A program made the position numbers and the translations under genes. Under the pieces are notes generated by a model. The model made no database searches and was not told the origin of the DNA. It was given only the letters and a program-made list of their open reading frames with translations. This document shows, piece after piece, positions 11,540 through 34,475 of a DNA stretch of 64,000 nt (its first letter is position 1; the number at the start of each line of letters is the position of its first letter). The DNA is from Candidatus Paraprochloron terpiosi LD05 (GTDB lineage: Bacteria; Cyanobacteriota; Cyanobacteriia; Cyanobacteriales; Prochloraceae): positions 2,837,261 through 2,901,260 of the forward strand of contig CP073341.1 of the NCBI GenBank assembly GCA_018141785.1. The letters run 5' to 3'.

Positions 11540-12270
11540 CTTTTTCCCCCAGCTACAGCTAAAGGTACAGCGTCTTCAAACAAAAACTCGTAGAGGAAGC
11601 GGTCAGCCCACTCCGAACCGAAATAACTGCTAAACAGACCGTGAGCTGGGTCTCGCTCAGCGCTATACTGGTCGTATTCTTTTTGCGCTTTGACAATTTT
11701 CTCAATGTCAGTCGAGTCCGTCAACCTTTCAGCCCCATCTAGCAATTGCCAATATAAGTGTATATATTCTTGGTAAGCTGGGAATAACCTGGTAACTACT
11801 GTCTCAGGGTTAGTTTTGGCAAAGAGCAAGTATTTAGAAAAATACTGATTCGCATCGTAAAATTTCATTTCCAGGTTTTGCGCCAACTCATTATACTTAT
11901 CCCTAATGGGCGCCATTGGCTCGATATACTTATCTAGATAATCCTGTGTGCGGAATAAAGGCTGGAAATCCAGAACTACGAGGATTTTTTTCTTACCGAA
12001 GGATAAAAAGTCAATTCCCAACAGGGGTAGATCGTAATAGTGAGCTGGATAGATAACGCTATTAAATACCTGGGCAGTTTCCCCAGCATCAATATAGCTG
12101 TATCGAATTTTGCGCAATTGGGGACAGGAGTAGCACCAACTCTGAATCGTCGCCGGATTCTTGCCGCGATCGCTGATATTGGATTCTAATCCCGGAGTAA
12201 TAGGGCTACTACTGAGATCGAAGCGGCTAAAAAGCTCTTTTTCTAAAAACTCGCGAAAAGGCTGGAACAT
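11536..12270 (-). CDS. pebA: 15,16-dihydrobiliverdin:ferredoxin oxidoreductase
   Basis: 244 aa. IQSWCY...VLDFQPL...[30 protein letters not shown] matches PebA. Confidence 0.85.
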
Positions 12271-12721
12271 GAATTCTCGCTCGGATATTAAATATCCTTC
12301 CTAGGGTACATCACGAGCAGCGATCCTGTCTCAATCCTCTCAAACAAAACAACATTCTGTGAGGTAGTTGCTAGTACACAAAAACGTGAACAAACCTCAG
12401 CTAAGTTAGCAAAACCTGTTGTACTTAGGAAAAAGTTTTAAAAATACCGCACTACATGGTATCTTAAAAATGGTCATGGCCGTGAGATAACGTAGGTTGG
12501 TAATGGCCCTACCCCGGCTCAGGGCGGGCGATTCGATCAAGCGTGAAATCGCGGCGTAAGCCAAGCATAAACTAGGGCTTGGGTAAGCAGCCTTCGTTAA
12601 ATCTAAGTTCAGAAATGAGCTGAAAAGCGGATTTCCTGAAAAGGAGCTGATTGCGCAAGCAACCGCGTAAGCGTCCCAAGACAACTAAATCTAGGATGCG
12701 GGTGAGAGAAATCAAGTCCCG

Positions 12722-12747
12722 CCCCCGCCATTAATCAATGCCGGGGG
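12722..12747. repeat. Mini-palindrome P1 (26 nt)
   Basis: Exact CCCCCGCCATTAATCAATGCCGGGGG inside intron B1. Confidence 0.85.
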
Positions 12748-12895
12748 GATTGCAGACTCCTAATCTGACCACATTCAATTGTGAATTCAAGCAATCTTGC
12801 CGGGTTTGTCACCGGGGGGTGAAGCTGGTAACAGGGCGGAATCAGGCACGAAAGTGACCCTGCCGCTAATAGGGAGAGTCTATGGTGAACAGAAG

Positions 12896-12921
12896 CCCCC
12901 GCCATTAATCAATGCCGGGGG
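12896..12921. repeat. Mini-palindrome P1 (26 nt)
   Basis: Exact CCCCCGCCATTAATCAATGCCGGGGG inside intron B1. Confidence 0.85.
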
Positions 12922-14078
12922 TGGTAAGTGAACTGTCGTAAAAAGCTTCTAATCCGGGGGAGCACAGCGTTAAGTTTAGGGGTGACGCCCCTTTAATGGG
13001 TATCCCAACTGGTAATTGAAACCCCACCTACTCAGCCCTGAAGAGAGGTATCCCTGGGGGACCAGTGGGCGAATTGATGGCACCTAAAGACTCGGAACAA
13101 TCTTAGATTTGGCAACGTTGCAAAAACGTAGGTAACCACATAGGGTGGTAACTAAGAGAGAGTTAGACAAACTCAAACGGGAACTACGAATAGGACGCAG
13201 GAACGAAACGAAAGCTAGTAATAGTGGAAACGATTGCCTGCAATGAGCGAGACCCGAAGAAGTACTCGAAATTGTATAAGTCGCTTGATGAACCTGAAAA
13301 GGTTAGATACCACGCCAGAGATGGTGATGATGAAGCAGGCGGTCAACCGAGTAGAGGAAAATAAGGGAAAGGCGACGAAAGTTATCTAAGCCAGAAACGG
13401 AACCAAATCTGATAACGGACGTTGTCAATGGTGAAGATGGATTCGCATCCAAAAGACAGCCATAGCTCATAGGAGCCGTGTACGGTGAAAGCTGTAAGCA
13501 CGGTTCTGAAGGGGAGCTGGGGTTTAGCAATGAACTCCTTCGACCCTGTCAGAATAAACTTTCCTTCGGGAATGATAGTTTCGGCAGCTAGGATAAATAA
13601 ACGTCGTTGCGTATTGCCACAGTGGTAGCTTGAGTAGCCCCATGATGGGCTCCAAATTTAAAAAAGCGCTTAACTTTCGAGTTAAGCTTTGCAGGCAACT
13701 GCCTTTACTATTTCTAGTGATGCTATACTTATCTCAGATTTATGCAGCAATGTATAAGTTTGAGCAGGTTAAATGTTGCACAAACTCCCACGGATGAATC
13801 ACGTGGGCTTTGCTTTTAGTTCGGTAATATTGTTTTTTTATGGAGCCGAGCAGAGTTGAACTGCTGTCCAGACTGGGTATTGACTGTCCGCTCATTCACA
13901 GGTTTAGCCCATCTAACCCTCAGGGCGGGAACCATCCCTTATCCCGGATGACAGGATACTCTGGCAAAGTCTTAGCTCTTGAGCCTACCAGAGGAGGAGC
14001 AAGAGAGCATCCGTTGAGGTTTGGCCCGCAGCCCTTAACGGAGTCAGACTGCGAGCGCTCGAACCTGTTTAGAGGTTT

Positions 14079-14126
14079 TTAGGCAACAGCAGCTGCCTTA
14101 CGAGCAAAAGGAACGATGTTGTTCGC
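14079..14126 (-). other. tmRNA tag reading frame ANNIVPFARKAAAVA plus stop
   Basis: Resume codon GCG at 14126..14124 and TAA at 14081..14079. This is a typical cyanobacterial ANNIV.FAR-type tag. Confidence 0.85.
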
Positions 14127-14127
14127 A

Positions 14128-14971
14128 GTTAGTCGAGATAGGTAGACCCTTACAGGTTTTCCCCCTCACAGTACCGGGCGTGCAACTTTCAAAGCACCCG
14201 GCTCCTGGTGTATCATCCTACTCCCGGCGCGTTAATTCCCATTTCTAGGACTGGTTTTTCAGGACTATTCCTACCGTCAGGCAGTCAAGTGGTTTTATTA
14301 ATCCTTAAATTTGACCAATCATCCCCGCCATTAGCGATTAGCCATAACGCTTTCAAACTTATGGGGAACATTGGGATTCAAGTCCCAGTTTCAGATTACA
14401 AATCCTATACGAATAGATTTGTAATTACGTTTCACCCTCTCTTACGTCAGCTCCCCTTTCGGGTAGACATTTGTCTATGAGTCAGGTTATACAGTCGTGT
14501 TTTCCCTCGGACTTTCGTCCATGACTCCATTCGCTTCTTAAGAGAGTCCTTTCTCCCCAGGGAATTGGTTCACCTTACGGCTTTCCTACGATTTCTCGAC
14601 CCTGTGGAGGTTTACTCGTTTCACAATAGTTAGATACGCCCGGGTTAGATTGCTCCTTACAACGGCGATGTGGTAGCTACCGCAGTCTAAAAATGAGTAG
14701 ACTTTTCACATATATCGCGTGCCATTTTGGCTAGAGTTTATCAGGTTGCTTAAACTCTTTCTCAAGTGACGTTGCTGCAAGCTTCGCTTTATGCTCACCA
14801 TACCGGACTTCCCATAGACTGTACCTGCTTACAACCTAGCAGGCCTTTAGCCACTTAACCCTCTAGCTGTGAAACACCCCCATTACTGGGACTGCCCCTT
14901 CGGGCTGGGACTGGAGAAACTACTCCCCGTGGGACTTTCGTTCACTAACTACTGCGACTTCCGAGTCGCAC
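14128..14971 (-). mobile_element. ORF-less group II intron, family C copy C1, inside ssrA
   Basis: The 5' end is GUGCGACUCGGAAGUCGCAGUAG (from 14971). Domain V is GAGCCGGGUGCUUUGAAAGUUGCACGCCCGGUAC at 14171..14204. Domain VI ends ...CCUAUCUCGACUAAC at 14128. A hairpin loop CAUUUU (14690..14695) is complementary to the last 6 nt of exon 1 (AAAAUG). No sense ORF of 60 aa or more is in the track. Confidence 0.85.
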
Positions 14972-15204
14972 CATTTTGTTTGAGCCTTTGATTTGCGAGA
15001 GGAGACTCACTCTCGACCTGAATCACAGGATAGCTTTCGCCAACCTGTCGAAACCGTTACGGCCCCTAGATTTCTTTCTCTATCCAATATCTTATAACAC
15101 TTGAGGGGTATTTAACAAGTTATTTTTATTAAGAATTGTAAATATTGTAAATATAGCTACAATTATCTACCAGAGTCAAAAATAGACCAAAAAGAAGCCG
15201 ACAG

Positions 15205-15681
15205 ATGGATTGTAGCCAGATTCAATTTTGCGTTGACAAATCAAAAATAGACCTGGAGCAATGCCTCGAATTATTCAACCTTAGTGCTTTTTGGGCGCAA
15301 GGGAGAAAAAAAGAGGATTTAGAAATAGCGATACGCTACTCGGATCCTGTAGTGAGCGTGTGGAACCAAGAGCTGATGGTAGGTTTTGCCAGAGCTACCT
15401 CCGACGGTATCTACCGCGCTACTATTTGGGATGTAGTCATCCATCCAGAATATCGGGGAGCCAGGTTAGGGCGCAAATTAGTAGAAACGGTTTTGAGCCA
15501 TCCAAAGGTGAACCGAGTAGAGCGAGTGTACTTGATGACTACCAATCAACAAAGCTTTTACGAACGAATTGGTTTTCTACCAAACCAAACTACTACTATG
15601 ATCCTCTACAACTCCTCCCCGAGCAGGGAGGTACTCATACCGCAGACTTGGCAAGAAGAAAGGAACACTCTAGCCGTGTAA
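15205..15681 (+). CDS. GNAT family N-acetyltransferase
   Basis: 158 aa. [36 protein letters not shown]...FYERIGF acetyl-CoA binding motif. Confidence 0.8.
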   Translation: MDCSQIQFCVDKSKIDLEQCLELFNLSAFWAQGRKKEDLEIAIRYSDPVVSVWNQELMVGFARATSDGIYRATIWDVVIHPEYRGARLGRKLVETVLSHPKVNRVERVYLMTTNQQSFYERIGFLPNQTTTMILYNSSPSREVLIPQTWQEERNTLAV

Positions 15682-15689
15682 GAGGCTGG

Positions 15690-16320
15690 TTTAGGTTTTC
15701 GGCTGTTAAATCCAAAACAGTCAAATCTGACTGGATGATTTCCAATAAGTTCTGACACAGCAACAATTTCATCCCCGGAGAAAAGTCCAGTTGTTGGTTA
15801 AAGGACTTAATAGCAGAGGATGTGGACAGGGTAGAAGGAGTTCATTGCTGATTGCGTAAGCTTTGCGTAAGCAACCGCCCTTTCGGGAAATTCGTCTTTC
15901 AGCTTATTTCTAAACTTAGATTAAACGGGGGCTGCTTACCCAGAGCTAGTGTTTATTCTTTGGCTTACGCCGTGATTTCGCCGGAAACGAATCGCCCGCG
16001 GAGGCAGTCTGTTGCCTCAAATCCACGGGTTCGCTCCAGATACTGGCATCACAGTCCACATCGATCTGAATCCAAACACGACTGCTGGGCTTGGGCAATA
16101 CAATCCCGTTCTTCTGCCGGACTGTCGCAGAGGTCGGACAAAATGAGCTGATACAAGCTAATTAAACTGGTGAGAGGCGATCCCAATTCGTGGAAAGTCC
16201 GCGCCAGAAACCCAGCTTTATACTGGCCCATTTGGGCGGCCATAAGGTATCGCAGCTGAGTTTATTTTAGTTGCTCTTTGAAGGCTTGAATCTCGTTCAT
16301 TGGAAATTATAATTTCAAAT
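15690..16320 (-). pseudogene. Histidine kinase remnant (frameshifted; interrupted by a mini-intron; upstream end abuts the tnpB element)
   Basis: H-box FLARTFHELGSPLTSL lies in ORF 16049..16243. After a frameshift comes IQIDVDCDASIWSEPVDLRQ. SSAIKSF (N-box-like) resumes only after the 173-nt insert. Confidence 0.5.
15825..15997 (-). mobile_element. Family B mini-intron derivative (5' ~150 nt fused to the last ~25 nt; no domain V)
   Basis: Minus strand GGGCGATTCGTTTCCGGCGAAATCACGGCGTAAGCC...GCTTACGCAATCAG joins directly to CAATGAACTCCTTCTACCCTGTC. Both ends are colinear with B1's termini. Confidence 0.6.
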
Positions 16321-16378
16321 TTCCCTGACGCCGGATATACCAATCCTTACCCGTCCATACTAAATTTGAGCCTTCAGG

Positions 16379-16518
16379 TACTATAGCGCGCCCCGCAGGG
16401 GAAGGGGTAAAGGGTGAAGGGTAAAGGGTAAAGGTTCGTGAAAACCATGTACACCGGTGGTTTGAGCACTTGTTCATTTTTTTAATTTGTAAATACCCCG
16501 GCGCGCACTGCTATAGAG
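16379..16518. repeat. Imperfect inverted repeat enclosing a GGGTAAA/GGGTGAA heptamer array, at the tnpB 3' end
   Basis: CTATAGCGCGCCCCG (16381..) pairs with CCCCGGCGCGCACTGCTATAG (16496..). Heptamers lie at 16405..16434. It could be the IS right end / guide-RNA region, or a separate element. Confidence 0.4.
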
Positions 16519-16534
16519 ACACTCTGCACGAAAT

Positions 16535-17766
16535 TTACTCAATGACCTTTTTGACATACTCCCCGCGCACCCGCGACGGGGATTCTGGGGTCAAGCAGCG
16601 AATGCAGGCAGCAGCCCAACTGACTTCACCTAACCCACAGGTTGATGCCCCAACCCGCTTAATATTGATAGCCGCATTCTCGTCCCGGTCATGTTCTGAC
16701 CCACAGGATGGACACTGCCAACGTCGCACTCTCAAATCCAATTTCTCCAATACATGACCACAGCAATGACAAGTTTTCGAGGAGGGGAACCAGCGGTCTA
16801 CATAAACCACCGCTTTCCCCTTCTTCTCGGCCACCCATTCTAGGATGGTCAAGAAGGTGCTCAAACCCAAATCGGAGACTTTTCTCCCCCAAAGTCGCTG
16901 CATCCCTTTCAGATTCAATGTTTCAAAATAGAGCACATCAAATTGGTCGGTTAGCCAATGGGAGAGCTTCCAAAACCAATCTTCTCGTCGATGTGCAATA
17001 TCCTCATGACGACGAGCCAGATGTTTCCGGGCGCGTTCGCGGTTATTTGACCCCTTCTGCTTGCGGGATAAATCTCGGTTCGCCTTCCGAATCTCTGTTA
17101 GAGATTGTTTGAAGAACAACGGCGCATCAATACTGAAACCTTCAGAGGTCGAGAGAAATTGCTTCAGTCCAAAATCAAAACCAGCGGTTTGACCCGTCTC
17201 GACGCTAAGAATTGGCTCAGAAGCTGTGTCCACCGTGACAAACAGAAACATCTCCCCCAAGGGAGTGCGTTTGATTGTTACGGTCTTCACTTTTCCCTCA
17301 ATTTCTCTAGATTTCCAGAACCGATACACCCGGTCGCCAATCTTGATGCGATTGCCATCGAGGAACTTGTATCCGCATTGCTTCAGGGTGAAGGATTTGT
17401 ATTTCCGAACTTTCTTAAAACTCGGGGGACGAACCCCTTGGTCTTTGTGCTTGAAAAACAACTGATACGCCCTCTCAATGCGCTGACAAATGTCTTGCAC
17501 CGCTTGAGAACCCACTTGCTGCCAGAAAGCGTTACGTTTCCGCAGCTTGGCAATATGCTTCTGGAGTTTGGCGCAGTTCAAGTGCTTGCCAAACATCCGG
17601 TAGTACCGACATGGATTGCCCTATGGGGCCTTCAGACCCATAGGGCCTGAAGGCAAACCAGATGTAGAGCAATGCAATGGTTGTAAATCCTCCCTGAGGC
17701 ATTGACGATGCGTTTCAGGTGACGATTGCGCTGGTGGTTGTAAAACTTAAACTTCAGTGTTTTCAT
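16535..17766 (-). pseudogene. tnpB: IS200/IS605-family TnpB (OrfB), split by a 53-nt insertion with frameshift; no tnpA
   Basis: The N-terminus MKTLKFKFYNHQRNRHLKRIVNASGRIYNHCIALH is in ORF 17632..17820. The remainder, MFGKHL...RuvC-like...CHCCGH...CPSCGSEHDRDENAAINI, is in ORF 16535..17596, in another frame. Upstream hairpins CCCCGTCGCTGACTTCGCGGGG and GCGGCTTTAGCCGC resemble an IS605 left end. Confidence 0.8.
17609..17661. repeat. 53-nt insert in tnpB with interleaved complementary segments (A-B-A'-B')
   Basis: Minus strand GCCTTCAG-GCCCTATGGG-T-CTGAAGGC-CCCATAGGGC sits between codons ...IALH and RYYRMFGK. Confidence 0.5.
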
Positions 17767-17914
17767 GTGGATGATTATATCCGGTTCACGGCGGCTAAAG
17801 CCGCACGAGTCGCTTTTCATCCCCGCGAAGTCAGCGACGGGGCTTTCAAGCTCCCGGATTTTTTCGTAAAACTCTACAAATATCGTTAAAGTTTCCCAAT
17901 CCCTTTTACCAACA

Positions 17915-18166
17915 TGTCAAATTCAGTTGTCAAGGTCCGGGGTAACTCCGAGGTTTCCCCACTAGCTTTGGCGGTTTTACCCGTTTTAACTGGCGGGTCA
18001 GGTAGAATTGCTAGGTGTTTTCAGCGGGTTTCCCTGCTTAAATTGTCACCTAGTTTTTAGCCTTCACGCCCGGGGGGGTTAAACCAAGCTTCAGTTTATG
18101 TGTGGCAAACGAGCCGCGCTCTCTGCGAGTCTCCGAGCGGCTACTTTCCCTGGAAACGAGCCGCAC
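17915..18166 (-). mobile_element. Group II intron 5' fragment, family D (D3), fused to the 3' end of prmC
   Basis: Minus strand GTGCGGCTCGTTTCCAGGGAAAGT[P4]CGCGGCTCGTTTGCCACACATAAAC...CGTGAAGGCTAAAAACT...GGGAAACCCGCTGAAAAC is colinear with the fragment at 26084. No domain V follows. Confidence 0.6.
18113..18141. repeat. Mini-palindrome P4
   Basis: GCCGCGCTCTCTGCGAGTCTCCGAGCGGC. The same string lies at 21088..21116, at the homologous position of another intron 5' fragment. Confidence 0.7.
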
Positions 18167-19064
18167 AATAGGAACGATAAGCTAGGGCAAAACGGTCAAT
18201 TCCGGCTAAGTCAGGGAAAATATTTATTTTTGTATAGCTGCCTTGTTCTTCAAGCATTGCAGCAACTTGCTCTCCTTGTCCTACCATTATTTCAATTAAC
18301 CAAACTCCCCCAGGGATGAGGTAATCTGGAGCAGTTTGGATCAGGTAGCGGATATGTTCCAGACCGTCTGCACCACCCGAGAGAGCTAAATGGGGTTCGT
18401 GTCGGGCTACTTCTGGTTGTAACTGGGAAAATAAGGTCGTAGGAATATAAGGAGGGTTGGATACCATACCGCTAAATTTCCCTTTCAGGTTTGCCAGAGG
18501 AGACCACCAGGAACCTTGAGAGAAAGTGATTCTCGAACTCAAACCGAGATTGACGGCATTTTCTTTGGCGATGGTCAAAGCTGCGTCGCTGCAATCCGTA
18601 GCATAAATTGAAGCATTTGTCAATAATTCCGCCAGACCGAGGGAGATAGCCCCGCTTCCGGTGCCCAGATCGACCCAGTTTCCCGAACTAATTTCCACCT
18701 CCGAGGGTTCTTCCACTACCTTTGCTACTAAGTCAATCAACAATTCAGTTTCCGGACGGGGAATGAAAACATCCGGGGAAACTTTGAGTTGAAAATGGCG
18801 CCAAGGTGCTACTCCAGCTATATATTGAACAGGCAAACTCTCCTGGAGACGCCGTCTCCATTGCTGGGTTAGCATTGACAGGGGTAGGGAGAGTCTGATT
18901 TGGTCTCGCTCTCTAAAAGATGCCATCGAGAGTGAAAGTTTGTCAACACCCGCCACTAATTCCAGGAGCCAGTCCACCTCTACTGGGGCTATATCAGAGG
19001 CGATCGCTGCTTCGCGCGCCTGTCTCCGCCACCAATAAAGTTTCTCCCCTGATACAATCACCAT
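18141..19064 (-). CDS. prmC: Release factor glutamine N5-methyltransferase; last 8 codons intron-derived
   Basis: 307 aa. VFIPRPETE, GTGSGAI and the NPPY motif (VSNPPYIP). The C-terminal ...AYRSY|CAARFQGK* reads into the GTGCGGCTCG intron 5' end. Confidence 0.85.
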   Translation of the reverse strand: MVIVSGEKLYWWRRQAREAAIASDIAPVEVDWLLELVAGVDKLSLSMASFRERDQIRLSLPLSMLTQQWRRRLQESLPVQYIAGVAPWRHFQLKVSPDVFIPRPETELLIDLVAKVVEEPSEVEISSGNWVDLGTGSGAISLGLAELLTNASIYATDCSDAALTIAKENAVNLGLSSRITFSQGSWWSPLANLKGKFSGMVSNPPYIPTTLFSQLQPEVARHEPHLALSGGADGLEHIRYLIQTAPDYLIPGGVWLIEIMVGQGEQVAAMLEEQGSYTKINIFPDLAGIDRFALAYRSYCAARFQGK

Positions 19065-19816
19065 TAAGGTTGAGATTGATTTTGCTGTTGTTGTTGGAGA
19101 GATTGTATAAATCGGATAGATTCGGACGATGGTATTATTACCATATTCCGTAGTGCATCATTTTCTTTTTGGTCGAAAGCTCCCATGAGAGACTCTAAAG
19201 GCACCACATTAATTTCTACATTTGAAGCTAATTCTGGCTTTTGCTCCTTGAATTTGGCCACAATGGCATCTAGTTGTTCTTTTTCAAAGAATAAAGGAAT
19301 CAATTCTCGATCTCCTTCGCTATAGGTTAGATATCCTTGTTCTTTTACCGTCGCAAAAAATAGCGGAACGCCCAGATATTGAGGCACATCTCGCTCTTGA
19401 TTCTGGAAAACATTCACAGCATACTGAATCTGCTGCCGCATCGGCACAAAACTAAAATTGGGGCTATCGAGCTGGTTGTCATTGTCCTTAATTTTCTTAT
19501 AAACCTCTGATAGGGGCACAACGACGATGCCCACGTCTTCAGCCAGTTCTGGATCTGTTTCCTTGACCTTTTCTAAAGCTGCCTGAGCATCTCGGGCGCT
19601 CAGATACATATAGGCTACCGTGCTGTCGTCTTCCCTGGAAACTACCAGAAAAGCACCTTGATTATTGGTGATTGTAAAAATTGGCACTTCTTGCAGCTTT
19701 TGGATCACTTGTTCTTGTGGTAAAGATAAGCCAGGCAGACTTTGACCCAAAACCGAACCTATTACCACACTGCTGATTAAACCTAGAGTTGCACGCCAAC
19801 GAAAAAATGATTTCAT
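19064..19816 (-). CDS. Tic22-like periplasmic/thylakoid chaperone family protein
   Basis: The track ORF is 19064..19855. MKSFFRWRATLGLISSVVIG looks like the signal-peptide start (19816). There are two Tic22-like repeats (VPIFTITNNQG..., VPLFFATVKEQG...). Confidence 0.75.
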   Translation of the reverse strand: MKSFFRWRATLGLISSVVIGSVLGQSLPGLSLPQEQVIQKLQEVPIFTITNNQGAFLVVSREDDSTVAYMYLSARDAQAALEKVKETDPELAEDVGIVVVPLSEVYKKIKDNDNQLDSPNFSFVPMRQQIQYAVNVFQNQERDVPQYLGVPLFFATVKEQGYLTYSEGDRELIPLFFEKEQLDAIVAKFKEQKPELASNVEINVVPLESLMGAFDQKENDALRNMVIIPSSESIRFIQSLQQQQQNQSQP

Positions 19817-19818
19817 AA

Positions 19819-20160
19819 TTACTTCAACCGTGATAAAGTTCTGAACACACCCCATCTAAATCCGGGATTATATCTGGTAATTAATTCACCAAAAACCCAC
19901 AAACTCGCTGAAAGAGCCCTGATAGCATCCTCACTTTTAAAAAACAAATCAATTTTCGTACCAGTCCCATTCTCGTTCCCAGTTGACACAAACTTATTCA
20001 GCCTATCAAGAATGGTATAAACAGGCACTGATTGTAATTTTTGGACAATTACCTCCTCAGGTATTGAGAGCGCAGGTATAGGAGGACAACCAAGGATCGA
20101 GCCCAAAACACTAATCAAGAGCCAACTCTGGCTGACATTCCTAGTAAGTAGAGACTTCAT
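19819..20160 (-). CDS. Short Tic22-like N-terminal paralog (possibly a remnant)
   Basis: MKSLLTRNVSQSWLLISVLG...SIPEEVIVQKLQSVPVYTILD parallels the N-terminus of the downstream Tic22-like gene. The upstream part of the track ORF is tRNA-Pro read-through. Confidence 0.4.
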   Translation of the reverse strand: MKSLLTRNVSQSWLLISVLGSILGCPPIPALSIPEEVIVQKLQSVPVYTILDRLNKFVSTGNENGTGTKIDLFFKSEDAIRALSASLWVFGELITRYNPGFRWGVFRTLSRLK

Positions 20161-20186
20161 ACTGACCAATGACCTCCCAGGACGAA

Positions 20187-20260
20187 TCGGGATGACAGGA
20201 TTTGAACCTGCGACATCCTGCTCCCAAAGCAGGCGCGCTACCAAGCTGCGCTACATCCCG
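20187..20260 (-). tRNA. tRNA-Pro (anticodon UGG)
   Basis: CGGGATGTAGCGCAGCTTGGTAGCGCGCCTGCTTTGGGAGCAGGATGTCGCAGGTTCAAATCCTGTCATCCCGA folds as a cloverleaf. The anticodon loop is TTTGGGA. No encoded CCA. Confidence 0.95.
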
Positions 20261-20322
20261 TAATCTTCTTGCTACTAGTATAACTAAATCTTCTCCTTCT
20301 GTCAACTAGGAGCAAAAAAAAA

Positions 20323-20877
20323 TTAATTTGGATACCAAAACATGCTTTTAATTCCCTCCGGGTCAAGCACAAACCCCAGTCTGCGATAGAAATTTACCAC
20401 TTGAGGATCGGCGAAGAGAGTAATATTGCTAATATCCTCTGCCCGAAGTTTTTCAATGGCGTACTTCATCAGAGCCTTACCCAGTCCTTTATTTTGAAAA
20501 TCAGGATCGATAGCCACATCCCAAATAGTGGCATTGAAAGCCCGATCAGACGTAGCGCGGGCAAAACCGATTAAACGGCGTCTTTTCCCCCGCACTTCCC
20601 ACATAGAAACAACCAAAAAACTGTACCTTATTGCTTTTCTGACCTTGCGGAGGGGACGACGAGCCCAACCAACGCGATCACATAGTTCTTCCAAATCGTA
20701 AAGGTCAATATCGGGATCCGTACTCACAACAATGCGACGTTCGTTCACAGGGCGACCCTGGCTTTGCCCGGATCCGCGCGATGCGGTATAATAAGTGAGA
20801 AGTTCCTCCTCTAAGTTTTTGTTATGATCGGTTGAGAATGCATCAGAATTGCTAAACAATCTTTTCCAAAAACTCAT
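20323..20877 (-). CDS. GNAT family N-acetyltransferase
   Basis: 184 aa. [35 protein letters not shown]...FYRRLGF. Confidence 0.8.
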
Positions 20878-20944
20878 GCAATGTGGCCCGAGTTATAGAC
20901 TTATTTGTCCTCGGAAAGTCATCCGGAGACCTAAATAGTAGCAC

Positions 20945-21141
20945 AAAGTGTCTAGCATATTCTCCTATGGGTAGTGGGTCACTCGTTCAGGTAGGAATCG
21001 GTTGTCCAGCTTTCAGGCCCTTATCGGGCGCTTAAATTGACTTGTCCGATGTCCCGGAAACCAGGCCCCTGCTTATGTTTTGCTTGCGCCGCGCTCTCTG
21101 CGAGTCTCCGAGCGGCTACTTTCACAGGGAACGAGCCGCAC
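20945..21141 (-). mobile_element. Group II intron 5' fragment, family A (A9)
   Basis: Minus strand GTGCGGCTCGTTCCCTGTGAAAGT[P4]CGCGGCGCAAGCAAAACATAAGCAGGGGCC...GGGACATCG is colinear with the first ~200 nt of intron A1. Confidence 0.6.
21088..21116. repeat. Mini-palindrome P4
   Basis: GCCGCGCTCTCTGCGAGTCTCCGAGCGGC. It is absent from the same position in A1 (GTGAAGGTCGCGGCG). Confidence 0.7.
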
Positions 21142-21390
21142 AGGTCGGTATACTCATCCATAGGTAAAGAATACATAACAGCTATATGTCTTATCCTAAC
21201 ACTGTTCTTTTTTCATTTAGGATTGCTATATGAAGTCGTCAAGAAGAAATAAGAGCAATGATAAAATTGATTGACAGGGAAATTATCTTGATTACTAGAA
21301 GAGTCTTGAGTGCAGTTCTTGTTTGCTACCTGCAACAATGAATTATTATAGTAATAAGCTTGTACAGTAAAAGCGCGATAAGCTTGCTTT

Positions 21391-21768
21391 ATGTTGTTAA
21401 AGAAATTAAGACTTAAGAAGTCGGATAAGAGTTACTTAGTTGAGGAGAATAAACCGATGCTACACCGCAAGATTTATCAAATGTGTGCAGATGGTCGTGA
21501 AGTTTGTATTTTCTTGCGGGATCAGCTTCGCTGGATCGAAGATGCTCGCATTATCGATCTTGAAGGAGATCTAGTTACGGTCCGATATGAAACAGAGGAA
21601 GATGATGAAATTAGTTCCTGGGAAGAAATGGTGCGTTTGGAAAGCATAGGTTCTGTAAGTCAAAAGCTAGCTTCCGTCTCCAGATTTAATTTTGATCCAA
21701 CCATTGCCGATGATTGTCCTGAAGCGGAACAAATTCACCCTCATTATCCCCAATCCAACCAAGATTAA
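21391..21768 (+). CDS. Hypothetical protein (acidic, small)
   Basis: 125-aa ORF. An internal MLHRKIYQMCADGREV (21457) may be the true start. No family recognised. Confidence 0.45.
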   Translation: MLLKKLRLKKSDKSYLVEENKPMLHRKIYQMCADGREVCIFLRDQLRWIEDARIIDLEGDLVTVRYETEEDDEISSWEEMVRLESIGSVSQKLASVSRFNFDPTIADDCPEAEQIHPHYPQSNQD

Positions 21769-21889
21769 TCCCAGGGTTCAGCTATCAACCAATTATACTA
21801 GCTAGAAACGAAGCTATGTAATATTGACTCTCTCCATCAGCCCAAAAGCTTACTCTCAAAGGGGTATATTGAAAGCTGAATGCTTACAT

Positions 21890-22012
21890 TCAGTGAGCAG
21901 AGCCGTTGCCATGGTAATTATCAGAGTCGTAAAATCCATTCTTAGTAGCAAAAAATAAGGAAGATAGGATAAAAAGACCAGTTAAAATTGGCAACACTAA
22001 TTTGATTTCCAT
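21890..22012 (-). CDS. Possible 40-aa single-TM protein
   Basis: Own translation: MEIKLVLPILTGLFILSSLFFATKNGFYDSDNYHGNGSAH*. Below the track's length cutoff. Hydrophobic helix plus a polar tail. Confidence 0.3.
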   Translation of the reverse strand: MEIKLVLPILTGLFILSSLFFATKNGFYDSDNYHGNGSAH

Positions 22013-22054
22013 AGGTTTGACTTACTTCTTCTTCTATCTGTTTGGTGATAGCTG

Positions 22055-22269
22055 GACGGGTCGAAGGAGTTCCTCGCGGGACCCCAGCTCACGCAGTCAG
22101 AACCGGACGTGAAAGTTTCCATTCATCACGGCTCCTATGACCTGCGGGTGTCACCCAATTGTTACATTCGAAGGGTTGGGGTGAACCAACCGCCCCTGTG
22201 CTTAGAACCGTGCGTGAGCTCCGGTTTATTCTTGGCTTACGCCGCGATTTCGCCAGAAATGAATCGCCC
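22055..22269 (-). mobile_element. Family B mini-intron mosaic (B2)
   Basis: Minus strand GGGCGATTCATTTCTGGCGAAATCGCGGCGTAAGCCAAGAATAAAC, then a family-E-like domain V half, then domain V GAGCCGTGATGAATGGAAACTTTCACGTCCGGTTCT, then ...CTCCTTCGACCCGTC. Confidence 0.55.
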
Positions 22270-22271
22270 TA

Positions 22272-24765
22272 ATTAGAGTCGAGGGAGATGTTGCCACCTC
22301 GCCCCTCTCCTACGAACTGTACGTGAGACTTTCACCTCATACAGCTCAGGTGCTCCTATGTCTTCACGACGCGCTTTACGAGTCCGTCCTTAATGCGCTT
22401 GCGATGTATTGCTTGCGCCTGGTGACATTCTCGGTGGAGGGCAACTAGATTCTTGGGTTTCCAGTTGTTATGATTGCCGTCTTTGTGGTGCAACTCCACA
22501 GCTCCATCCCTCTCCATGAACTTACGGTTGCAATGCGGACACGTACCCTTCTGTCGCTTAATGGCGTTAGCGGTTGGGCCACTATATAGTTTAGAGTTGC
22601 GACCGACCCAATAGGAAATATTCCCATTGAAGGGTGAGGCATCACCTTTGACCATTACGTGGTCATTGACTTTCCAGGGAACTGAGGGAAAGGCTTTCTC
22701 TATCTGGGCTATTGTAAGTTGGCGTTTTGCTGCTCCTACTAGGGGTTTCCCTTTGATAGCCAGACGTCTTGCTTTCTCCGCTTCCTTAATTGCCATCCTG
22801 CGTTTTTCAGCCCTCAGCTTACGCCATACCCAGTGACTGAGTGACCATAGCGAGTGCTTGTTCATGTCGCAGTTTTTGTGGTACTGCCTCCAACCTCGGA
22901 CTTGTGACTCTATCCTTTTCAGGCGAGCATCCGTGGTTGCGCCATTCTTCCAAGTGGTCTTTATCTTGGCCTTGATGTCCGCATAATTCTCAGAGCTCGG
23001 TGTAGATTTGAAGACTCCACGGGAATTGACACGGAAGCGCCACCCCAGGAAATCGAACCCATCCGTAGCTTTACTCACCTTAGTCTTAGTTTCGTTAATT
23101 CGTAGCCCTCTGGACTTTAGGAATTCATCGATATTCTCCCGTAGCCTCTTGGTATCAGCTCCGGGTTTACAGATAAAGACCGCATCATCTGCGTAACGTA
23201 TACCCCTTATGAGAGTGCCACCTTGGCGTCTCCTTTTCCATTGATTCAACCCCAGGTTCTCAAATCCATCTAGAGCGATATTGGCCAGTAGAGGTGAGAT
23301 AACCCCACCTTGGGGGGTACCCTTCATACTGGAGGGATATTCACCACGAACGCCTGCTTTTACAGCTTTCTTTAACCCCTTTAGAGCTTCGATTGGTAAG
23401 ATTACTCCATTGAGCATGACCTTGTGGTCAATTTCGTCAAAGCATTTACTGATATCTGTTTCCAGAATCAGCTTGTCTTTACCATTTGCTTGGCTGTTTA
23501 GGTTCACGAAAATCAGCTTTTGTGCGTCCGCAGTACAGCGACCGGGTCTGAAGCCGTAGCTCCGTTCTCCGGCGGTTGCTTCGTAGGCAGGCTCGGCTGC
23601 TAACTTAAGCAGTGCTTGCCATGCCCTGTCGGCCATTGTAGGGATGCCTAATCCCCTTGTTTTGCCGTTTGGCTTCGGGATATTTACCCTTCTTAGTTGC
23701 TGGTGTTTCCAGTGGTACCAGTGCTTATTCAGCCTTTGGCATAACACTAGACGCTCATTGGTAGAAAGCGCTGTTTTTCCATCAACTCCGGGGGACTTAC
23801 GCCCTGTGTTCAGCTGTGTTACTTGTTTGACGGCCAGAGCTTGAGCTGCACGACTCTGTAATAGGAGCCGTTGTAAACGTTTGACTTTGGCTTTGTGCTT
23901 GTCCTTTTGCGCTTTGAAGATACTCCGCTGTAACCGAAATACCTGACCTCGAAATCTCTTCCATGGCAGGTCTTTCCAGACATCGTCAGCCTTCCGGCCA
24001 ATCTTCCCCGCCATTAGCAGAACTGCTAGGTGGAGCCTCAAGGCTTTTAGACTGCGGTATTCGATTGGAGTCTGGTTAGTGATATTCACAGTTTTGACCT
24101 TCATTAGTCGCTCTGATAATTACATTGGGTATCTTCTCTGTAGAAACCATCAGGCAGTTACGCCTTCTCTTACCCTCGCTCTTCCGGTAGGCCGTTAATC
24201 GGGCGACCCCACCATCTCACATATCAGGGCTTGGAATCCCTTGTTTTAATGGAGGTTGAGCGAGTTTTTACTCGTTCCGAATGACCTATTGTTACGAACC
24301 CTTGGGACTCATCCTTTGACCTATCACCAACTCAGGAATGTAAATATGCTCCACGGATTTTACGAGTTTCTTTCGGTGTCTTTTCTGCTCTATAGCGGCT
24401 TGGCAGTGTCTCTCGTTAGGTCTTTTCACTGATGATTCACGTTGTTATCCCGGTGTTCTCCCTATTAGCGGCGTAACCATCGAACCGCTCGATAGTCCGG
24501 TCCCGCCCTGCTGCCAGCTTCAGCCTGATGATTAATCTCACTGTGGCCAGATAAGGATTCACATGATTCCTTCATGGGAGAGGCTTGGTAACACGATTTC
24601 TGGCCGTGCCCTCACTCTCATAGTTCATTCAGTTGTCAGGGTTCGGTATCGTTTGTCCGTTTTCGTCCCTTTCGGTGGTTTAGATTATCGGAGACGTTGT
24701 CCCGGGAACCCTGCTCCTGCTTATGTTTGGCTCACGCCGCGACCTTCACAGGAAACGAGCCGCAC
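22272..24765 (-). mobile_element. Full-length group II intron, family A (A1), with an intact IEP
   Basis: The 5' end is GTGCGGCTCGTTTCCTGTGAAGGTCGCGGCGTGAGCC (from 24765). Domain V is GAGCTGTATGAGGTGAAAGTCTCACGTACAGTTCG (about 22313..22347). The 3' end is ...CCCTCGACTCTAAT at 22272. No mini-palindrome insertions. Confidence 0.9.
22356..24104 (-). CDS. Group II intron reverse transcriptase/maturase with a C-terminal HNH endonuclease domain
   Basis: 582 aa. RT motifs (GTPQGGVISPLLANI, IRYADDAVF), a maturase region, and HNH (CPHCNRKF...ELHHKDGNHNNW...LHRECH). Confidence 0.95.
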   Translation of the reverse strand: MKVKTVNITNQTPIEYRSLKALRLHLAVLLMAGKIGRKADDVWKDLPWKRFRGQVFRLQRSIFKAQKDKHKAKVKRLQRLLLQSRAAQALAVKQVTQLNTGRKSPGVDGKTALSTNERLVLCQRLNKHWYHWKHQQLRRVNIPKPNGKTRGLGIPTMADRAWQALLKLAAEPAYEATAGERSYGFRPGRCTADAQKLIFVNLNSQANGKDKLILETDISKCFDEIDHKVMLNGVILPIEALKGLKKAVKAGVRGEYPSSMKGTPQGGVISPLLANIALDGFENLGLNQWKRRRQGGTLIRGIRYADDAVFICKPGADTKRLRENIDEFLKSRGLRINETKTKVSKATDGFDFLGWRFRVNSRGVFKSTPSSENYADIKAKIKTTWKNGATTDARLKRIESQVRGWRQYHKNCDMNKHSLWSLSHWVWRKLRAEKRRMAIKEAEKARRLAIKGKPLVGAAKRQLTIAQIEKAFPSVPWKVNDHVMVKGDASPFNGNISYWVGRNSKLYSGPTANAIKRQKGTCPHCNRKFMERDGAVELHHKDGNHNNWKPKNLVALHRECHQAQAIHRKRIKDGLVKRVVKT

Positions 24766-24785
24766 GTAGAGTCGAGATAGGTAGA

Positions 24786-24811
24786 CCCCCGCCATTAATC
24801 AATGCCGGGGG
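24786..24811. repeat. Mini-palindrome P1 (26 nt)
   Basis: Exact copy. It replaces the loop TTACAGG found in C1 (ggtagaccc-ttacagg-ttttccccc). Confidence 0.85.
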
Positions 24812-25031
24812 TTTTCCCCCTCACAGTACCGGGCGTGCAACTTTACAACTCTGTTGAACGGGGAACATTGGGCCTCAAGTCCAAGTTTCGGATTACAAAT
24901 CCTATACAAGCGGATTTGCTTTACGTTTCACCCATTCCTACGTCAGCTGCTTCGCAATCCCATTACTGGTTTCCTACGGCGATTGCCGACCCTGTGGAGG
25001 TTTACTCGTTCCGCAATAGTTAGATTCATCC

Positions 25032-25059
25032 GGGACGCCTTCGGCGGCACCTTCGGTGT
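25032..25059. repeat. Mini-palindrome P2
   Basis: GGGACGCCTTCGGCGGCACCTTCGGTGT. It is absent at the homologous site of C1. Confidence 0.75.
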
Positions 25060-25452
25060 TAGGCTGCTCCTTACCCCGACGGCTTGGTGTCTACTTGATA
25101 AAAGTAACAATTTATCTTTCAATTGCCGCATGCCTTAACTTTCTGAATATTTATTCAGAAAGTTGCCAATGGGACTAGACGGCTAGTCCACTAACTACTG
25201 CGATTGTCTAGTCGCACGCTACTATACTATATAGTACCCTATTTTATCACAAAGATACCAAATTTGGCAACCCGACGAGGGAAAATTATCTCGCCTTGAG
25301 TTTGCCGACCGGCTCTAAACTAGGTCAATCAGAAGACAGCCCAGTACTCCAACCATAATATTTGATTTGGTTGGTGGTGTAGGGCGAGTGAGTCGAGGTC
25401 GAGGTGCATCCCCTGACCAATGCTGAAAGCGAGGGAAGGGGATAGCGCCGAG

Positions 25453-26045
25453 GAGCGGGTCGAAGGAGTCCATCACTGATTGCGTAAGCAACCGCGTAAG
25501 CGTCCCACAGCTCACGCAGTCAGAACCGGACGGGACACTTTCCCATCATCCTGCTCCTATGACCTACGGTTGCTAAAACCCTTGACAAATTCTGTTATCA
25601 TGTTTGGTACCTTTTGACGGTTAGATAACTTTGGTTGTCTTTCCCTTACTTCCCTTTACTTTGCTTGGCGTGTTGCGGGTTTTTTGGAGAGATTTTATTT
25701 AACGTGCATATCATTCGTCACTACCCATGGGTGTGCAGTATTGTTCCCTTCAGGGAACAAATGCCTTTGCGTTTCCAGTTCAGTTCCGGTTCTCGGTCAT
25801 TGTGGGCAATTGTTTCCGCTATTACCAACTTATGTTTCGTTCCCACGTACTGATACCGTCGGTCGGGTAAGGGACGCTAACGCGGGACGCCAAGGGCGGT
25901 TGCTTACGCAAAGCTTGCGCAATCAGCTCCTATTCAGGAAATCCATTTTTCAGCCTCTTTCGAGGCTTAGATTTAACGGGGGCTGCTTACCCAAGCTCCG
26001 ATTTATTTTTGGCATTGCTGCGATTTCGCCGGAAACGAATCGCCC
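25453..26045 (-). mobile_element. Family B ORF-less intron, internally deleted (B3)
   Basis: The 5' end is GGGCGATTCGTTTCCGGCGAAATCGCAGC. A degenerate domain V reads GAGCAGGATGATGGGAAAGTGTCCCGTCCGGTTCT. The 3' end is ...GGACTCCTTCGACCCGCTC. Confidence 0.6.
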
Positions 26046-26083
26046 ACGAACAATGTACACGTTGTGGCACAATGTAGACATGC

Positions 26084-26386
26084 GTGCGGCTCGTTTCCTG
26101 TGAAGTCGAGGCTTAGGCCACATATAAACAGAGACTTGGTTTAACGTTAATGGCGTCTGAACAGCGGTTAGAGACCCTTCAATAGGGAAAAAAAAATACC
26201 TCAAAGGGATAACAAAGTGAACGTGAAGGCTAAAAACTGGAGACAATCTAAATGGGGAAACCCGCTGAAAACTCACAGCAATTCTGCCTGACCCGCGAGA
26301 TTAACGAGTGAAATAGGGAATATTCGCACCCGGGGCGGATTCTAAACAGAACCCTACAGGTAGTAATAACCGAACCTTGACAAGGA
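26084..26386 (+). mobile_element. Group II intron 5' fragment, family D (D4)
   Basis: GTGCGGCTCGTTTCCTGTGAAGTCGAGGCTTAGGCCACATATAAAC...CGTGAAGGCTAAAAACTGGAGACAATCTAAATGGGGAAACCCGCTGAAAAC. It is truncated at ...CCGAACCTTGACAA, where the GT39 fragment begins. Confidence 0.55.
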
Positions 26387-26643
26387 AACTGCCGTCAGCA
26401 ATGCTCTGGGTAAGCCAGTAGTCCATTCATTAACTGTGTGTCAACCCCAGCCAGAGCATAGGTAAGAGCAATCAATTCGTGGATTAGGGGAGGCTTATTC
26501 AGATATGGTTCTCTACCAAAAGTGGGAAACAGCAAGCCTTGAAAATCCCCCTTCACTGAAATTTCTTGAGCAACCTGCGCTACCGTACCTTCATCCCAAT
26601 CTCGCAGCGGTAAACTTCCAAGATTAATCCCAAATGAGAGCAA
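26387..26643 (-). pseudogene. Inverted duplicate of the 5' region of the GT39 gene (fragment)
   Basis: LSFGINLGSLPLRDWDEGTVAQVAQEISVKGDFQGLLFPTFGREPYLNKPPLIHELIALTYALAG corresponds to residues ~35-100 of ORF 28566..30185. About 88-90% nt identity by eye. Confidence 0.7.
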
Positions 26644-26645
26644 TG

Positions 26646-33835: not shown

Positions 33836-34475
33836 CCAACATTGATGGAAATGACACAAAAACAAGGACTGAGACTAGCTATAGTAGGGGCGATCCCGGA
33901 GGTATCTGCTTTGCGGCACGCCTTTTTTTCCCTTTCCTTCTTCCTCATCTTACACCGCCATTTTACTTTTTATGTGCGGCTCGATCAAGCGTGAAGTCGT
34001 GGCGTAAGCCACATATAAACTAGGGCCTGGTTTAGCGACTCCTAGTCGTGAAGGCGAAAATCCAAGGGTAATCTAAGTTGGGAAACTAGCTGAAAACCTA
34101 AGGAGATTATTACCGGATCCACTGGAAGTGGAGGTAAAGTCCTCTGAAGTAAGGCGGAAGGAAAGGCTAATAACCAAACCTACATGGTAATAATGACCGA
34201 ACCTTGACAACTGAATGAATTATGAGGGTGAAGAAGCTGGTCCGAATCAGCAGAGAAGAAGTCCCTCCCGCTAAGGAGTAGCGTGAATCCCTATCTGTCC
34301 ACACCGAGGGTTTGTCACCCGGAGTGAAGCTGGAAACAGGGCGCAACCGACGCTTTAGTAAGGTTACTGAGGTAAAGGCGCTAATGGGGAGAACACCGGA
34401 ATGGGCGATTGATTTCCGGCGAAAATCGCGGCATAAGCCAAAATATAACCCGCAGCTGGGGAAAGCAGCCCCCGC

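Follow-up and report, generated by a model that had tools for sequence, protein, structure and literature searches.

The element at positions 12526 to 13550 of the 64,000-nt window (the whole stretch of DNA analyzed, from the genome of Candidatus Paraprochloron terpiosi LD05) is a complete group II intron without an ORF, probably chloroplast-like/IIB in type, here called B1, and it begins with GGGCG. Family B, to which B1 belongs, is a branch of a larger GGGCG clade; it is old, and most of it has decayed. We regard as highly probable a joint explanation comprising the complete intron B1, an ORF-less clade spread through the genome, and remnants or fragments as the other family B copies of the window. 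G003, a genome of the same genus, was used for empty-site comparisons throughout. The features of B1 and its surroundings are as follows.

12361 to 12525, plus strand: 5' part of the host repeat element of B1 (about 438 nt, non-coding, absent from this site in G003)
12519 to 12525, plus strand: IBS1 of B1 (UCAGGGC), 7 nt with which the 5' exon ends, a perfect complement of GCCCUGA
12526 to 13550, plus strand: B1, complete 1025-nt ORF-less group II intron, starting GGGCGAUU and ending ...CGACCCUGUC
12721 to 12747, no strand assigned: palindromic mini-element of 27 nt that interrupts B1, first copy (many sites in the genome match it at 100%)
12895 to 12921, no strand assigned: 27-nt palindromic mini-element inserted in B1, second copy
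13035 to 13041, plus strand: EBS1 of B1 (GCCCUGA), located in the loop of a domain I hairpin
13471 to 13550, plus strand: domains V and VI of B1 (RF00029, 57.4 bits, E = 1.2e-08)
13551 to 13823, plus strand: 3' part of the host repeat element of B1

Covariance-model analysis bore out the good domain V that a preliminary description of this DNA had attributed to B1. RF00029 matched positions 13471 to 13549 with 57.4 bits, above the cutoff of 40, and folding agreed: the domain V/VI fold has a z-score of -4.0, and none of 200 shuffles folded as well. The 34-nt hairpin of domain V (13473 to 13506) carries an AGC triad and a 2-nt bulge and is capped by a GAAA loop. In domain VI, A13543 is bulged and lies 8 nt from the 3' end (...GACCCUGUC). 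B1 contains no ORF of ≥100 aa and, by this measure, no intron-encoded reverse transcriptase (RT)/maturase in domain IV; together with the domain V/VI fit, this upholds its description as an ORF-less group II intron. The covariance-model check was positive for RF00029, and the group-II-D1D4 models gave no match: the Rfam models of domains I to IV matched neither B1 (E ≤ 10) nor any other intron in the window, protein-encoding ones included, so that they are no guide to the class here. Domains V and VI and the EBS1 hairpin came out in consensus folding of whole introns, which was unreliable elsewhere; as a curiosity, it paired G1 to G3 with the CCC after the branch A, and it misaligned the family B rows near the 5' end. 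Across the B1 insertion point, paralogues of the host element that carry no interruption (genome positions 584000 and 3413258) read CCCCGGCGATGTAC followed directly by AGAATAAAC. Rfam gave no match for these uninterrupted copies, and promoter and terminator scans of the host element gave no informative signal.

GGGCG is the real 5' boundary of these introns, as the preliminary description had proposed. Similarity of B1 to other copies begins at 12526, and the flanks directly upstream of GGGCG differ among all copies; the preceding bases listed earlier (C, T, C, A, and T) proved correct in the five copies checked. The 5' splice site of B1 would be set by pairing of EBS1 with exon bases 12519 to 12525, a 7-bp interaction that ends at the base before GGGCG, and because this pairing would fix the splice site, the first intron bases should be GGGCG. 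The EBS1 loops of 13 GGGCG introns align at one position and vary in sequence along with the 5' exon. In 10 of these 13, the loop forms 6 to 8 contiguous pairs with its own exon bases ending at -1, compared with 19 of 138 mismatched exon/loop pairings that served as a control. Two of the three introns without a good match are at sites mismatched at -1, and the third scores only 2. G003 has empty sites at 15825 to 15997, at the block ending at 22055, at the 5' junction of 26045, and at an 86-nt mini-element described below; it also lacks a 993-nt GGGCG intron present within a DUF4347 gene.

We give almost no credence to the opposite reading, that GGGCG is not the intron end and that the copies are uniformly 5' truncated or the boundary is misplaced. 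The exon of B1 ends with ...GGGC right before GGGCG, which makes a slip of 4 nt formally possible in B1 alone, but the EBS1-IBS1 pairing stops exactly at -1 in those 10 of 13 introns, and the boundary of several copies is pinned down by empty sites and reading frames. For the clade, a misplaced or truncated boundary is already refuted. The scenario named beforehand as fatal to the GGGCG boundary, full-length copies extending upstream to a canonical GUGCG, is excluded by the pairing, the empty sites, and the varied flanks. A canonical start, GTGCGATT, is found in a relative, the 86-nt mini-element.

The window holds five family B copies that start with GGGCGATT, at 12526(+), 34403(+), 15997(-), 22269(-), and 26045(-). 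Those other than B1, the truncated copy near 50010, and the 86-nt relative elsewhere in the genome are listed below.

15825 to 15997, minus strand: 173-nt remnant, consisting of the family 5' ~115 to 135 nt, a dispersed ~36-nt repeat, and the last ~25 to 37 nt of domain VI
22055 to 22269, minus strand: 215-nt remnant, consisting of the 5' 55 nt, filler that includes the 3' half of a domain V, and a weak domain V/VI
25453 to 26045, minus strand: internally deleted copy of ~593 nt with a degenerate domain V (33 bits)
34403 to 34477, plus strand: 5' fragment (~75 nt) of a family B copy, followed by frameshifted RT/maturase remnants
49864 to 50013, minus strand: 5'-truncated family B fragment, in which similarity begins at about family position 16 to 21 and the first ~15 to 20 nt are missing
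genome positions 1261188 to 1261273: 86-nt relative starting GTGCGATT, made up of a hairpin stub at the 5' end and an entire domain VI, bulged A included

Alignment of the five copies with a GGGCGAT(T) start showed 78 to 90% identity across 55 to 135 nt. In an nhmmer search, the window copies were five of the seven top matches (E = 5.6e-19 to 1.7e-15); the other two, at genome positions 11357(-) and 3498082(-), are outside the window. Six copies had been said to share the GGGCGAT(T/G) end. This holds for five, the one near 50013 being a real copy that is 5' truncated. The heptamer GGGCGAT by itself is not diagnostic for family B, and most of its occurrences are unrelated: it is found 24 times in the window, 19 of them not at family B ends. 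The reported colinearity with family D was confirmed, since the first ~55 nt of family B match intron ends of the type GTGCGGCTCG... The statement that none of the copies encodes a protein is true of B1 and the minis and needs qualification at 34403, which is adjoined by frameshifted RT/maturase remnants at 34464 to 35720. Both 34403 and ~50013 are 5' fragments within rearranged intron debris that contains RT remnants.

Contigs from four public runs were compared with the window over 11800 to 27000 for empty sites or full-length minis, and contig joints that linked repeated intron parts and had short sides were left out. These contigs span the junctions of B1, 15997, and 22269 with 0 differences to the window. 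Neither alternative form was seen over this interval, and the unique parts were identical. The four runs may represent the same strain as the window.

The preliminary description treated its six copies as a self-contained family; they are instead part of the genome-wide clade, since 28 of 150 recognizable intron 5' ends in this 3.84-Mb cyanobacterial genome, which has at least 226 domain V/VI signatures, read GGGCG. Position 2 is G in all 28 clade copies, and positions 1 and 3 to 5 fit GUGYG; GGGCG of B1 would thus be a fixed U2-to-G variant. The clade copies are ORF-less and about 0.86 to 1.05 kb long, and are longer only where nested introns lie inside; the proteins encoded within them belong to these nested introns, which have their own domain V. 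Several clade copies are in frame within long open reading frames, a GGGCGAC copy at genome position 374836 is inside an open gene, and precise removal leaves ≥100 open codons on each side in 3 of 18 full-size copies. Near-identical copies occur at different sites, and every one ends with ...CGACCCGAAC. The helix of intron nt 3 to 8 shows compensatory variants (GGCU/AGUC, GAUU/AAUC, GACU/AGUC, and GGCU/AGCU). In GGGCGAC copies, the bulged A of domain VI is placed as in B1, 8 nt from the end, and GGGCGAC and GGGCGGC copies have an AY 3' end (...GAAC). Family B ends with ...GUC or ...GUCC, that is, UC or CC rather than AY, at a boundary good to within 1 nt. This could impair the second splicing step, or the boundary could be off by 1 to 2 nt. 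No simple partner covarying with position 2 was found, GGGCG being combined with both ...AAC and ...GUC ends; the covariation test at this position has no power because the clade is probably monophyletic.

G003 also has many copies whose alignments begin at the GGGCG base. The exact GGGCG 5'-hairpin pattern matched only the genome under study among 401 genomes of the phylum, a set outside which the sister genomes lie, and this narrow pattern says little on how widespread GGGCG is. We infer that the B1 clade comprises about 28 or more ORF-less introns here and more in the sister species, all starting with GGGCG, and that it spread by reverse splicing into sites matching the EBS1 of each intron. 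The genome has roughly 50 genes for intron-encoded proteins, and these presumably provided RT/maturase in trans. The protein of a related intron in the window matches chain C of PDB 6me0 (3.6e-81), which we take to be the T. elongatus intron protein.

The short copies retain the family ends and little in between. Both short derivatives singled out in the preliminary description keep both termini, as stated there. The 173-nt copy has no domain V, again as described, and gave no RF00029 match at E ≤ 1. Removal of exactly 173 nt restores frame and homology to a 271-aa ORF of G003, and the host gene, which has an in-frame stop and has lost an internal segment, is a pseudogene. For the 215-nt copy, the 5' 55 nt and a domain V/VI are present as had been reported, with two corrections: the RF00029 match (22054 to 22136) is weak, its 34.7 bits being under the cutoff of 40, and the copy also contains filler. 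It lies between genes, where three introns have entered ancestral sequence within 7 nt of one another, and is the last of them; the G003 empty site for the block that ends in it reads GC TCTAC TA AGCTATC. The empty site at the ~593-nt copy reads ...ATTGTTCGT followed directly by CCTACACC in G003, which places the 5' junction of 26045 at GGGCG. A point against our explanation is that the inserted block continues for another ~75 nt after domain VI. The 86-nt element is located 13 nt upstream of a start codon.

We favor the interpretation that the 173-, 215-, and ~593-nt copies are internal-deletion remnants of formerly complete insertions. The GGGCGAUU branch would then be old and mostly dead, with 34403 and ~50013 as 5' fragments. 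Family B copies are 10 to 20% divergent yet absent from the orthologous sites of G003, and no close source copies were found for their insertions; the divergence and the missing source copies fit poorly with recent insertion. The remnants are missing domain V, the exon-binding portion of domain I, or both, and so would be unable to splice alone.

Alternatively, the minis may have been born short: during retrohoming, the RT would have jumped from domain VI, at the 3' side of a full-length intron RNA, straight to the 5' side, such that a new insertion kept exact termini and lost the middle. The 86-, 173-, 215-, and ~593-nt forms do keep exact 5' ends at sites empty in G003, the three shortest keep exact 3' ends too, and full-length versions of the minis were not seen in the four other runs. 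Internal deletion, however, by definition preserves both ends, copies missing an end also exist (34403, ~50013, and 11357), and the four runs look like the same strain. The deletion junction of the 173-nt copy coincides with the dispersed ~36-nt repeat, which suggests later, repeat-mediated deletion. We consider the born-short origin unlikely.

The preliminary description likened the short copies to MITE-like reduction, i.e., to a non-autonomous family mobilized in trans as short elements. Retained termini and the abundance of intron-encoded proteins in the genome are consistent with this notion. Each mini, however, occurs only once, and its deletion junction was found nowhere else in the genome; the minis also lack domain V and/or EBS1, which are needed for reverse splicing. 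The MITE-like reading is close to refuted, and we assign it a minimal probability.

It is also conceivable, and in our view very improbable, that the minis are working introns like the group III introns of the Euglena plastid, excised with catalysis assisted in trans by the many group II introns of the genome and their proteins. A group III-type makeup (domain I stub and domain VI, without domain V) fits the 86-nt element, whose 5' stub is a hairpin and whose domain VI is complete, bulged A included, with nothing else present, and fits the 173-nt copy loosely. Frame is restored on removal of the latter, and the genome supplies many domain V RNAs and maturases. Against this, the 173-nt copy sits in a gene that is already a pseudogene, the 215- and 86-nt copies are outside coding sequence, each form occurs once only and none is conserved in G003, and the 86-nt element folds no better than its shuffles do (z = -0.76).

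The second intron base is almost invariant in group II introns and is the counterpart of the U in spliceosomal GU. A clade with G at this position at dozens of sites in two species indicates that the change is compatible with mobility and very likely with splicing too. The GGGCG clade is natural material for the question of the role of U2. Literature searches turned up no paper on introns of this organism or on cyanobacterial GGGCG introns. In the remnants, ORF-less introns have decayed to pieces of about 90 to 200 nt with only termini left; such non-mobile derivatives are rare and short-lived in bacteria according to the accessible portion of a review (PMC4424553). The count of domain V/VI signatures in 3.84 Mb exceeds the maximum of 101 introns per genome given in the available part of a 2022 survey (PMC8919778).

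A GGGCG 5' end is already in print for permuted and organellar group II introns, as far as the consulted sections of the two reports go. Circularly permuted group II RNAs have a conserved GGGCG in place of GUGYG, as here (Roth et al. 2021, PMC8637638); in contrast to the normal domain order here, that of these RNAs is permuted, and circles of RNA are released. For organellar introns, GGGCG is among the 5' splice-site sequences of modelled introns, beside GUGCG and UUGCG (PMC6867995). Those introns are from eukaryotic organelles, and the present ones form a mobile bacterial clade.

The group III introns of Euglena gracilis plastids are about 90 to 120 nt long and sometimes consist only of domain I and domain VI motifs, according to the available text of Zimmerly and Semper (2015, PMC4424553). 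The 86- and 173-nt copies share this short makeup without domain V. Euglena carries such introns in essential genes and removes them by splicing, whereas each copy here occurs once, lies in a pseudogene or in non-coding DNA, and is at most a putative substrate of splicing. We hold it very doubtful that the 86- to 215-nt copies are bacterial counterparts of these introns, removed in trans. If they were, catalytic RNA and maturase would come in trans from >200 resident group II introns, and the genome would be a living bacterial example of a step from self-splicing introns to trans-acting splicing machinery.

As described in the available parts of two papers (PMC4424553 and PMC2882425), introns of Methanosarcina acetivorans resemble those studied here in repeated homing into or beside other introns and in lying outside housekeeping genes. 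Unlike those, three introns here stand head to tail within 7 nt of exon, un-nested. The ORF-less TeI3 introns of Thermosynechococcus elongatus, for which proteins from other introns drive splicing and mobility (Mohr, Ghanem and Lambowitz 2010, PMC2882425, in its accessible text), are similar in several respects: in both cases, ORF-less derivatives exist beside related protein-encoding introns in a cyanobacterium, have spread to many sites, and form twintrons. Protein help in trans was shown for TeI3, whereas for the GGGCG clade we infer it. The 5' end here is GGGCG and the 3' end assigned to family B is not AY; the available TeI3 text holds neither a GUGCG nor a GGGCG string, which leaves the termini of TeI3 outside this comparison. 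The intron load here is far larger than that described there, and many of the copies are decayed, some of them to a very short length.

Five introns or intron fragments in the window start with GGGCGAT(T) (12526 and 34403 on the plus strand; 15997, 22269 and 26045 on the minus strand), and the 55 to 135 nt that follow align at 78 to 90% identity. We refer to this ORF-less group as family B. The preliminary description had counted six copies with the shared 5' end; the truncated sixth, near 50013 on the minus strand, enters the alignment only from family position 16 to 21. The base preceding GGGCG was read as C, T, C, A and T in the five copies, as had been reported. A profile of the five ends recovered seven full ends genome-wide (E 5.6e-19 to 1.7e-15), namely, the five window ends and those at 11357 and 3498082, both on the minus strand. 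Below these, the same profile listed many ends reading GTGCGGCTCG..., which are colinear with family B ends. The elements considered here are as follows.

12526-13550, plus strand: B1, an ORF-less group II intron of 1,025 nt
15825-15997, minus strand: 173-nt mini; first ~115 to 135 nt of the family, a ~36-nt repeat and the last ~25 to 37 nt of domain VI
22055-22269, minus strand: 215-nt mini; first 55 nt, filler including the 3' half of a domain V, and a weak domain V/VI
24765-22272, minus strand: 2.5-kb protein-encoding intron
25213-24766, minus strand: 448-nt element starting GTGCGAC..., its domain V damaged
26045, minus strand: copy of ~593 nt with a degenerate domain V
34403, plus strand: 5' fragment in rearranged intron debris
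~50013, minus strand: 5' fragment in rearranged intron debris
Genome 1261188-1261273 (L021:489-574): 86-nt relative with the canonical start GTGCGATT (GTGCG); 5' hairpin, small hairpin and complete domain VI only

B1 is the only complete family B copy. The good domain V attributed to it was borne out by a match of 57.4 bits to the Rfam domain V/VI model RF00029 and by a fold z of -4.0 for domains V and VI. The family 3' end reads ...GACCYGUC(C), with UC or CC in place of a terminal AY. Copies diverge from one another by 10 to 20%; that at 3498082 is a 3.4-kb twintron. Directly behind the 34403 fragment come RT/maturase remnants with frameshifts, covering residues 170 to 582 of the protein type that the 24765-22272 intron carries. 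The family appears to be old and largely dead. A 27-nt palindromic mini-element is present twice in B1 (12721-12747 and 12895-12921). Such small palindromes, 27 nt or ~36 nt long (the latter at 15847-15882), are dispersed in introns at many genome sites.

The source genome (G000; one contig, 3.84 Mb, 44.5% G+C, with a Yfr1 match) contains at least 226 domain V/VI profile matches and at least 150 RF00029 matches above the cutoff. Near full-length intron protein matches were found at only 51 loci, and RT cores at 111; ORF-less introns form the majority. The intron load exceeds the published per-genome maximum of 101 (PMC8919778). Among 150 intron 5' ends identified by profile genome-wide, 112 read GTGCG, 28 GGGCG and 3 AGGCG, and 7 were other or unrecognizable. 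Three ~1-kb ORF-less relatives of family B (genome 673984, 717856 and 802342) appear to begin with AGGCGATT, a provisional 5' boundary given the similarity of their upstream flanks.

GGGCG is the true 5' end of these introns. The GGGCG ends fall into sub-families reading GGGCGATT (family B), GGGCGACTCG (two groups) and GGGCGGCTCG, and their upstream flanks vary copy by copy. An EBS1 hairpin loop lies ~390 to 510 nt into the GGGCG introns, at an alignment position common to all, and is complementary to exon bases up to and including the one directly before GGGCG. Loop and exon vary together (UUCCUC/GAGGAA, GCAUAG/CUAUGC, UCCUUU/AAAGGA, UUUGAU/AUCAAA and CUUACG/CGUAAG); in B1, GCCCUGA (13035-13041) pairs with UCAGGGC (12519-12525). 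Counting contiguous pairs from exon position -1, 10 of 13 introns formed 6 to 8 with their own loop, and mismatched pairings did so in 19 of 138 cases. Of the three exceptions, two copies are mismatched at -1 and one scores 2. Empty sites in the sister species of the same genus (G003) place the boundary at the same base. The site of 15825-15997 lies there within a 271-aa ORF, and taking exactly 173 nt out of the window sequence restored frame and homology. The site of the 26045 5' junction reads ...ATTGTTCGT followed directly by CCTACACC, and the block ending at 22055 is represented by uninterrupted sequence (GC TCTAC TA AGCTATC). A DUF4347 gene is interrupted by a 993-nt GGGCG intron, which G003 likewise lacks. 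Finally, two uninterrupted paralogues of the B1 host repeat read CCCCGGCGATGTAC joined to AGAATAAAC at the point matching the B1 insertion. The end census, the EBS1-IBS1 pairing, the empty sites and the host paralogues together exclude the alternative foreseen in the preliminary description, in which a canonical GUGCG lies farther upstream and the copies are 5' truncated.

The block at 22055-25213 (minus strand) consists of three different introns head to tail, the 448-nt element first, the protein-encoding intron second and the 215-nt mini last, and G003 lacks all three. The exon bases between them (TCTAC and TA) reproduce the G003 sequence GC^TCTAC^TA^AGCTATC, with the insertions confined to 7 nt of ancestral sequence. 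Elsewhere in the genome, several further introns begin immediately after ...CTCGACTCTAA(T), with which another intron ends; for this reason, one intron type may home to a site resembling its own 3' end.

GGGCG copies measure ~0.86 to 1.05 kb; any longer copy owes its extra length to other introns nested within it, which bring a domain V and protein gene of their own. One GGGCG intron, of 993 nt, was located at genome 899691. As had been stated for the window copies, no GGGCG intron among the clade copies was found to have a protein gene of its own. They share domain V (GAGCCGUGUGAGG...) and a domain VI whose bulged A is 8 nt from the end; in the GGGCGAC and GGGCGGC copies, the terminal sequence is ...CGACCCGAAC, directly after which the flanks diverge. 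Intron nt 3 to 8 pair with a strand ~15 to 25 nt downstream in four pairing-preserving variants (GGCU/AGUC, GAUU/AAUC, GACU/AGUC and GGCU/AGCU). Rfam domain I-IV models gave no match in the window, and the RNA class is taken from relatives. The protein-encoding relatives in the window have RVT_N, RVT_1 and GIIM domains, with HNH in one of two proteins tested. The best solved-structure match of a related intron protein was 6me0 chain C (3.6e-81), a Thermosynechococcus IIB intron protein. G003 contains many clade copies, aligned from the GGGCG base onward; across 27 further genera of the order, pieces matching B1 were only domain V sized. Precise removal left a single frame open for at least 100 codons on either side in 3 of 18 full-size copies (in one of them, at least 299 and 300 codons). 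Taken together, these results mean that the U2-to-G end has been compatible with repeated reverse splicing and, because host genes stay open, probably with forward splicing too. The proteins needed would have to come in trans from the intron protein genes of the genome, by analogy with the ORF-less introns of T. elongatus, for which such supply was shown (PMC2882425).

The host of B1 is a structured noncoding repeat of ~438 nt (12361-12525 and 13551-13823) with no Rfam match. Uninterrupted copies are present at genome 584000-584420 and 3413258-3413700 (L012 and L013), and related pieces occur in genomes G001 and G003. It is inserted 19 nt downstream of ssrA and is absent from that position in G003 and G002. 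The sole tmRNA gene of the genome (ssrA, 13843-15070, minus strand) is itself interrupted by an ORF-less group II intron of 840 nt (14132-14971) running from GTGCGAC... to ...CTCGAC, a few nucleotides upstream of the tag reading frame (ANNIVPFAR...). No other copy scored above the cutoff in this genome; the tmRNA of G003 is intact (134.8 bits). Within the syntenic region, G003 has a stretch of its own that carries a HEARO RNA (RF02033, 146.7 bits; L010:4664-4883), which is absent from the window.

The preliminary description had both minis right in outline: 15825-15997 has no domain V, and 22055-22269 retains the 5' ~55 nt with domains V/VI, to which the filler is now added. At least 20 genome sites carry the ~36-nt repeat found in the 173-nt mini. 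The repeat is palindromic and, in the mini, sits at the deletion junction. The 173-nt mini interrupts a histidine-kinase-like pseudogene, which shows both an in-frame stop and an internal deletion. The 86-nt relative is located 13 nt ahead of a start codon, and its absence from G003 is precise. The inserted block of the 26045 copy extends ~75 nt beyond domain VI; this segment (25381-25452, minus strand) also is absent from G003 and ends ...CCTCGACCTCGACTCACTCGC, resembling the 3' tail of another intron. The block may be chimeric. The minis had been called reminiscent of MITE-like reduction, yet no deletion junction of these short copies, the 26045 copy and the 86-nt relative included, occurs a second time in the genome, which argues against an amplified family of this kind. 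We read these short copies as decay products, the deletions having arisen after insertion or during reverse transcription.

Contigs from four public runs showed no differences from the window over the B1, 15997 and 22269 junctions; the runs look like the same strain and hence add no polymorphism. GGGCG has been published as a 5' splice-site motif of circularly permuted bacterial group II RNAs (PMC8637638) and of some organellar introns (PMC6867995). We found no literature on GGGCG introns in cyanobacteria or on introns of this organism. New here are the EBS1-IBS1 covariation, the sister-species empty sites, the non-AY end of family B, and how the minis are built, together with their occurrence as single copies. 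In make-up, these short copies resemble the Euglena plastid group III introns (PMC4424553); unlike those introns, none of them sits in an intact gene.
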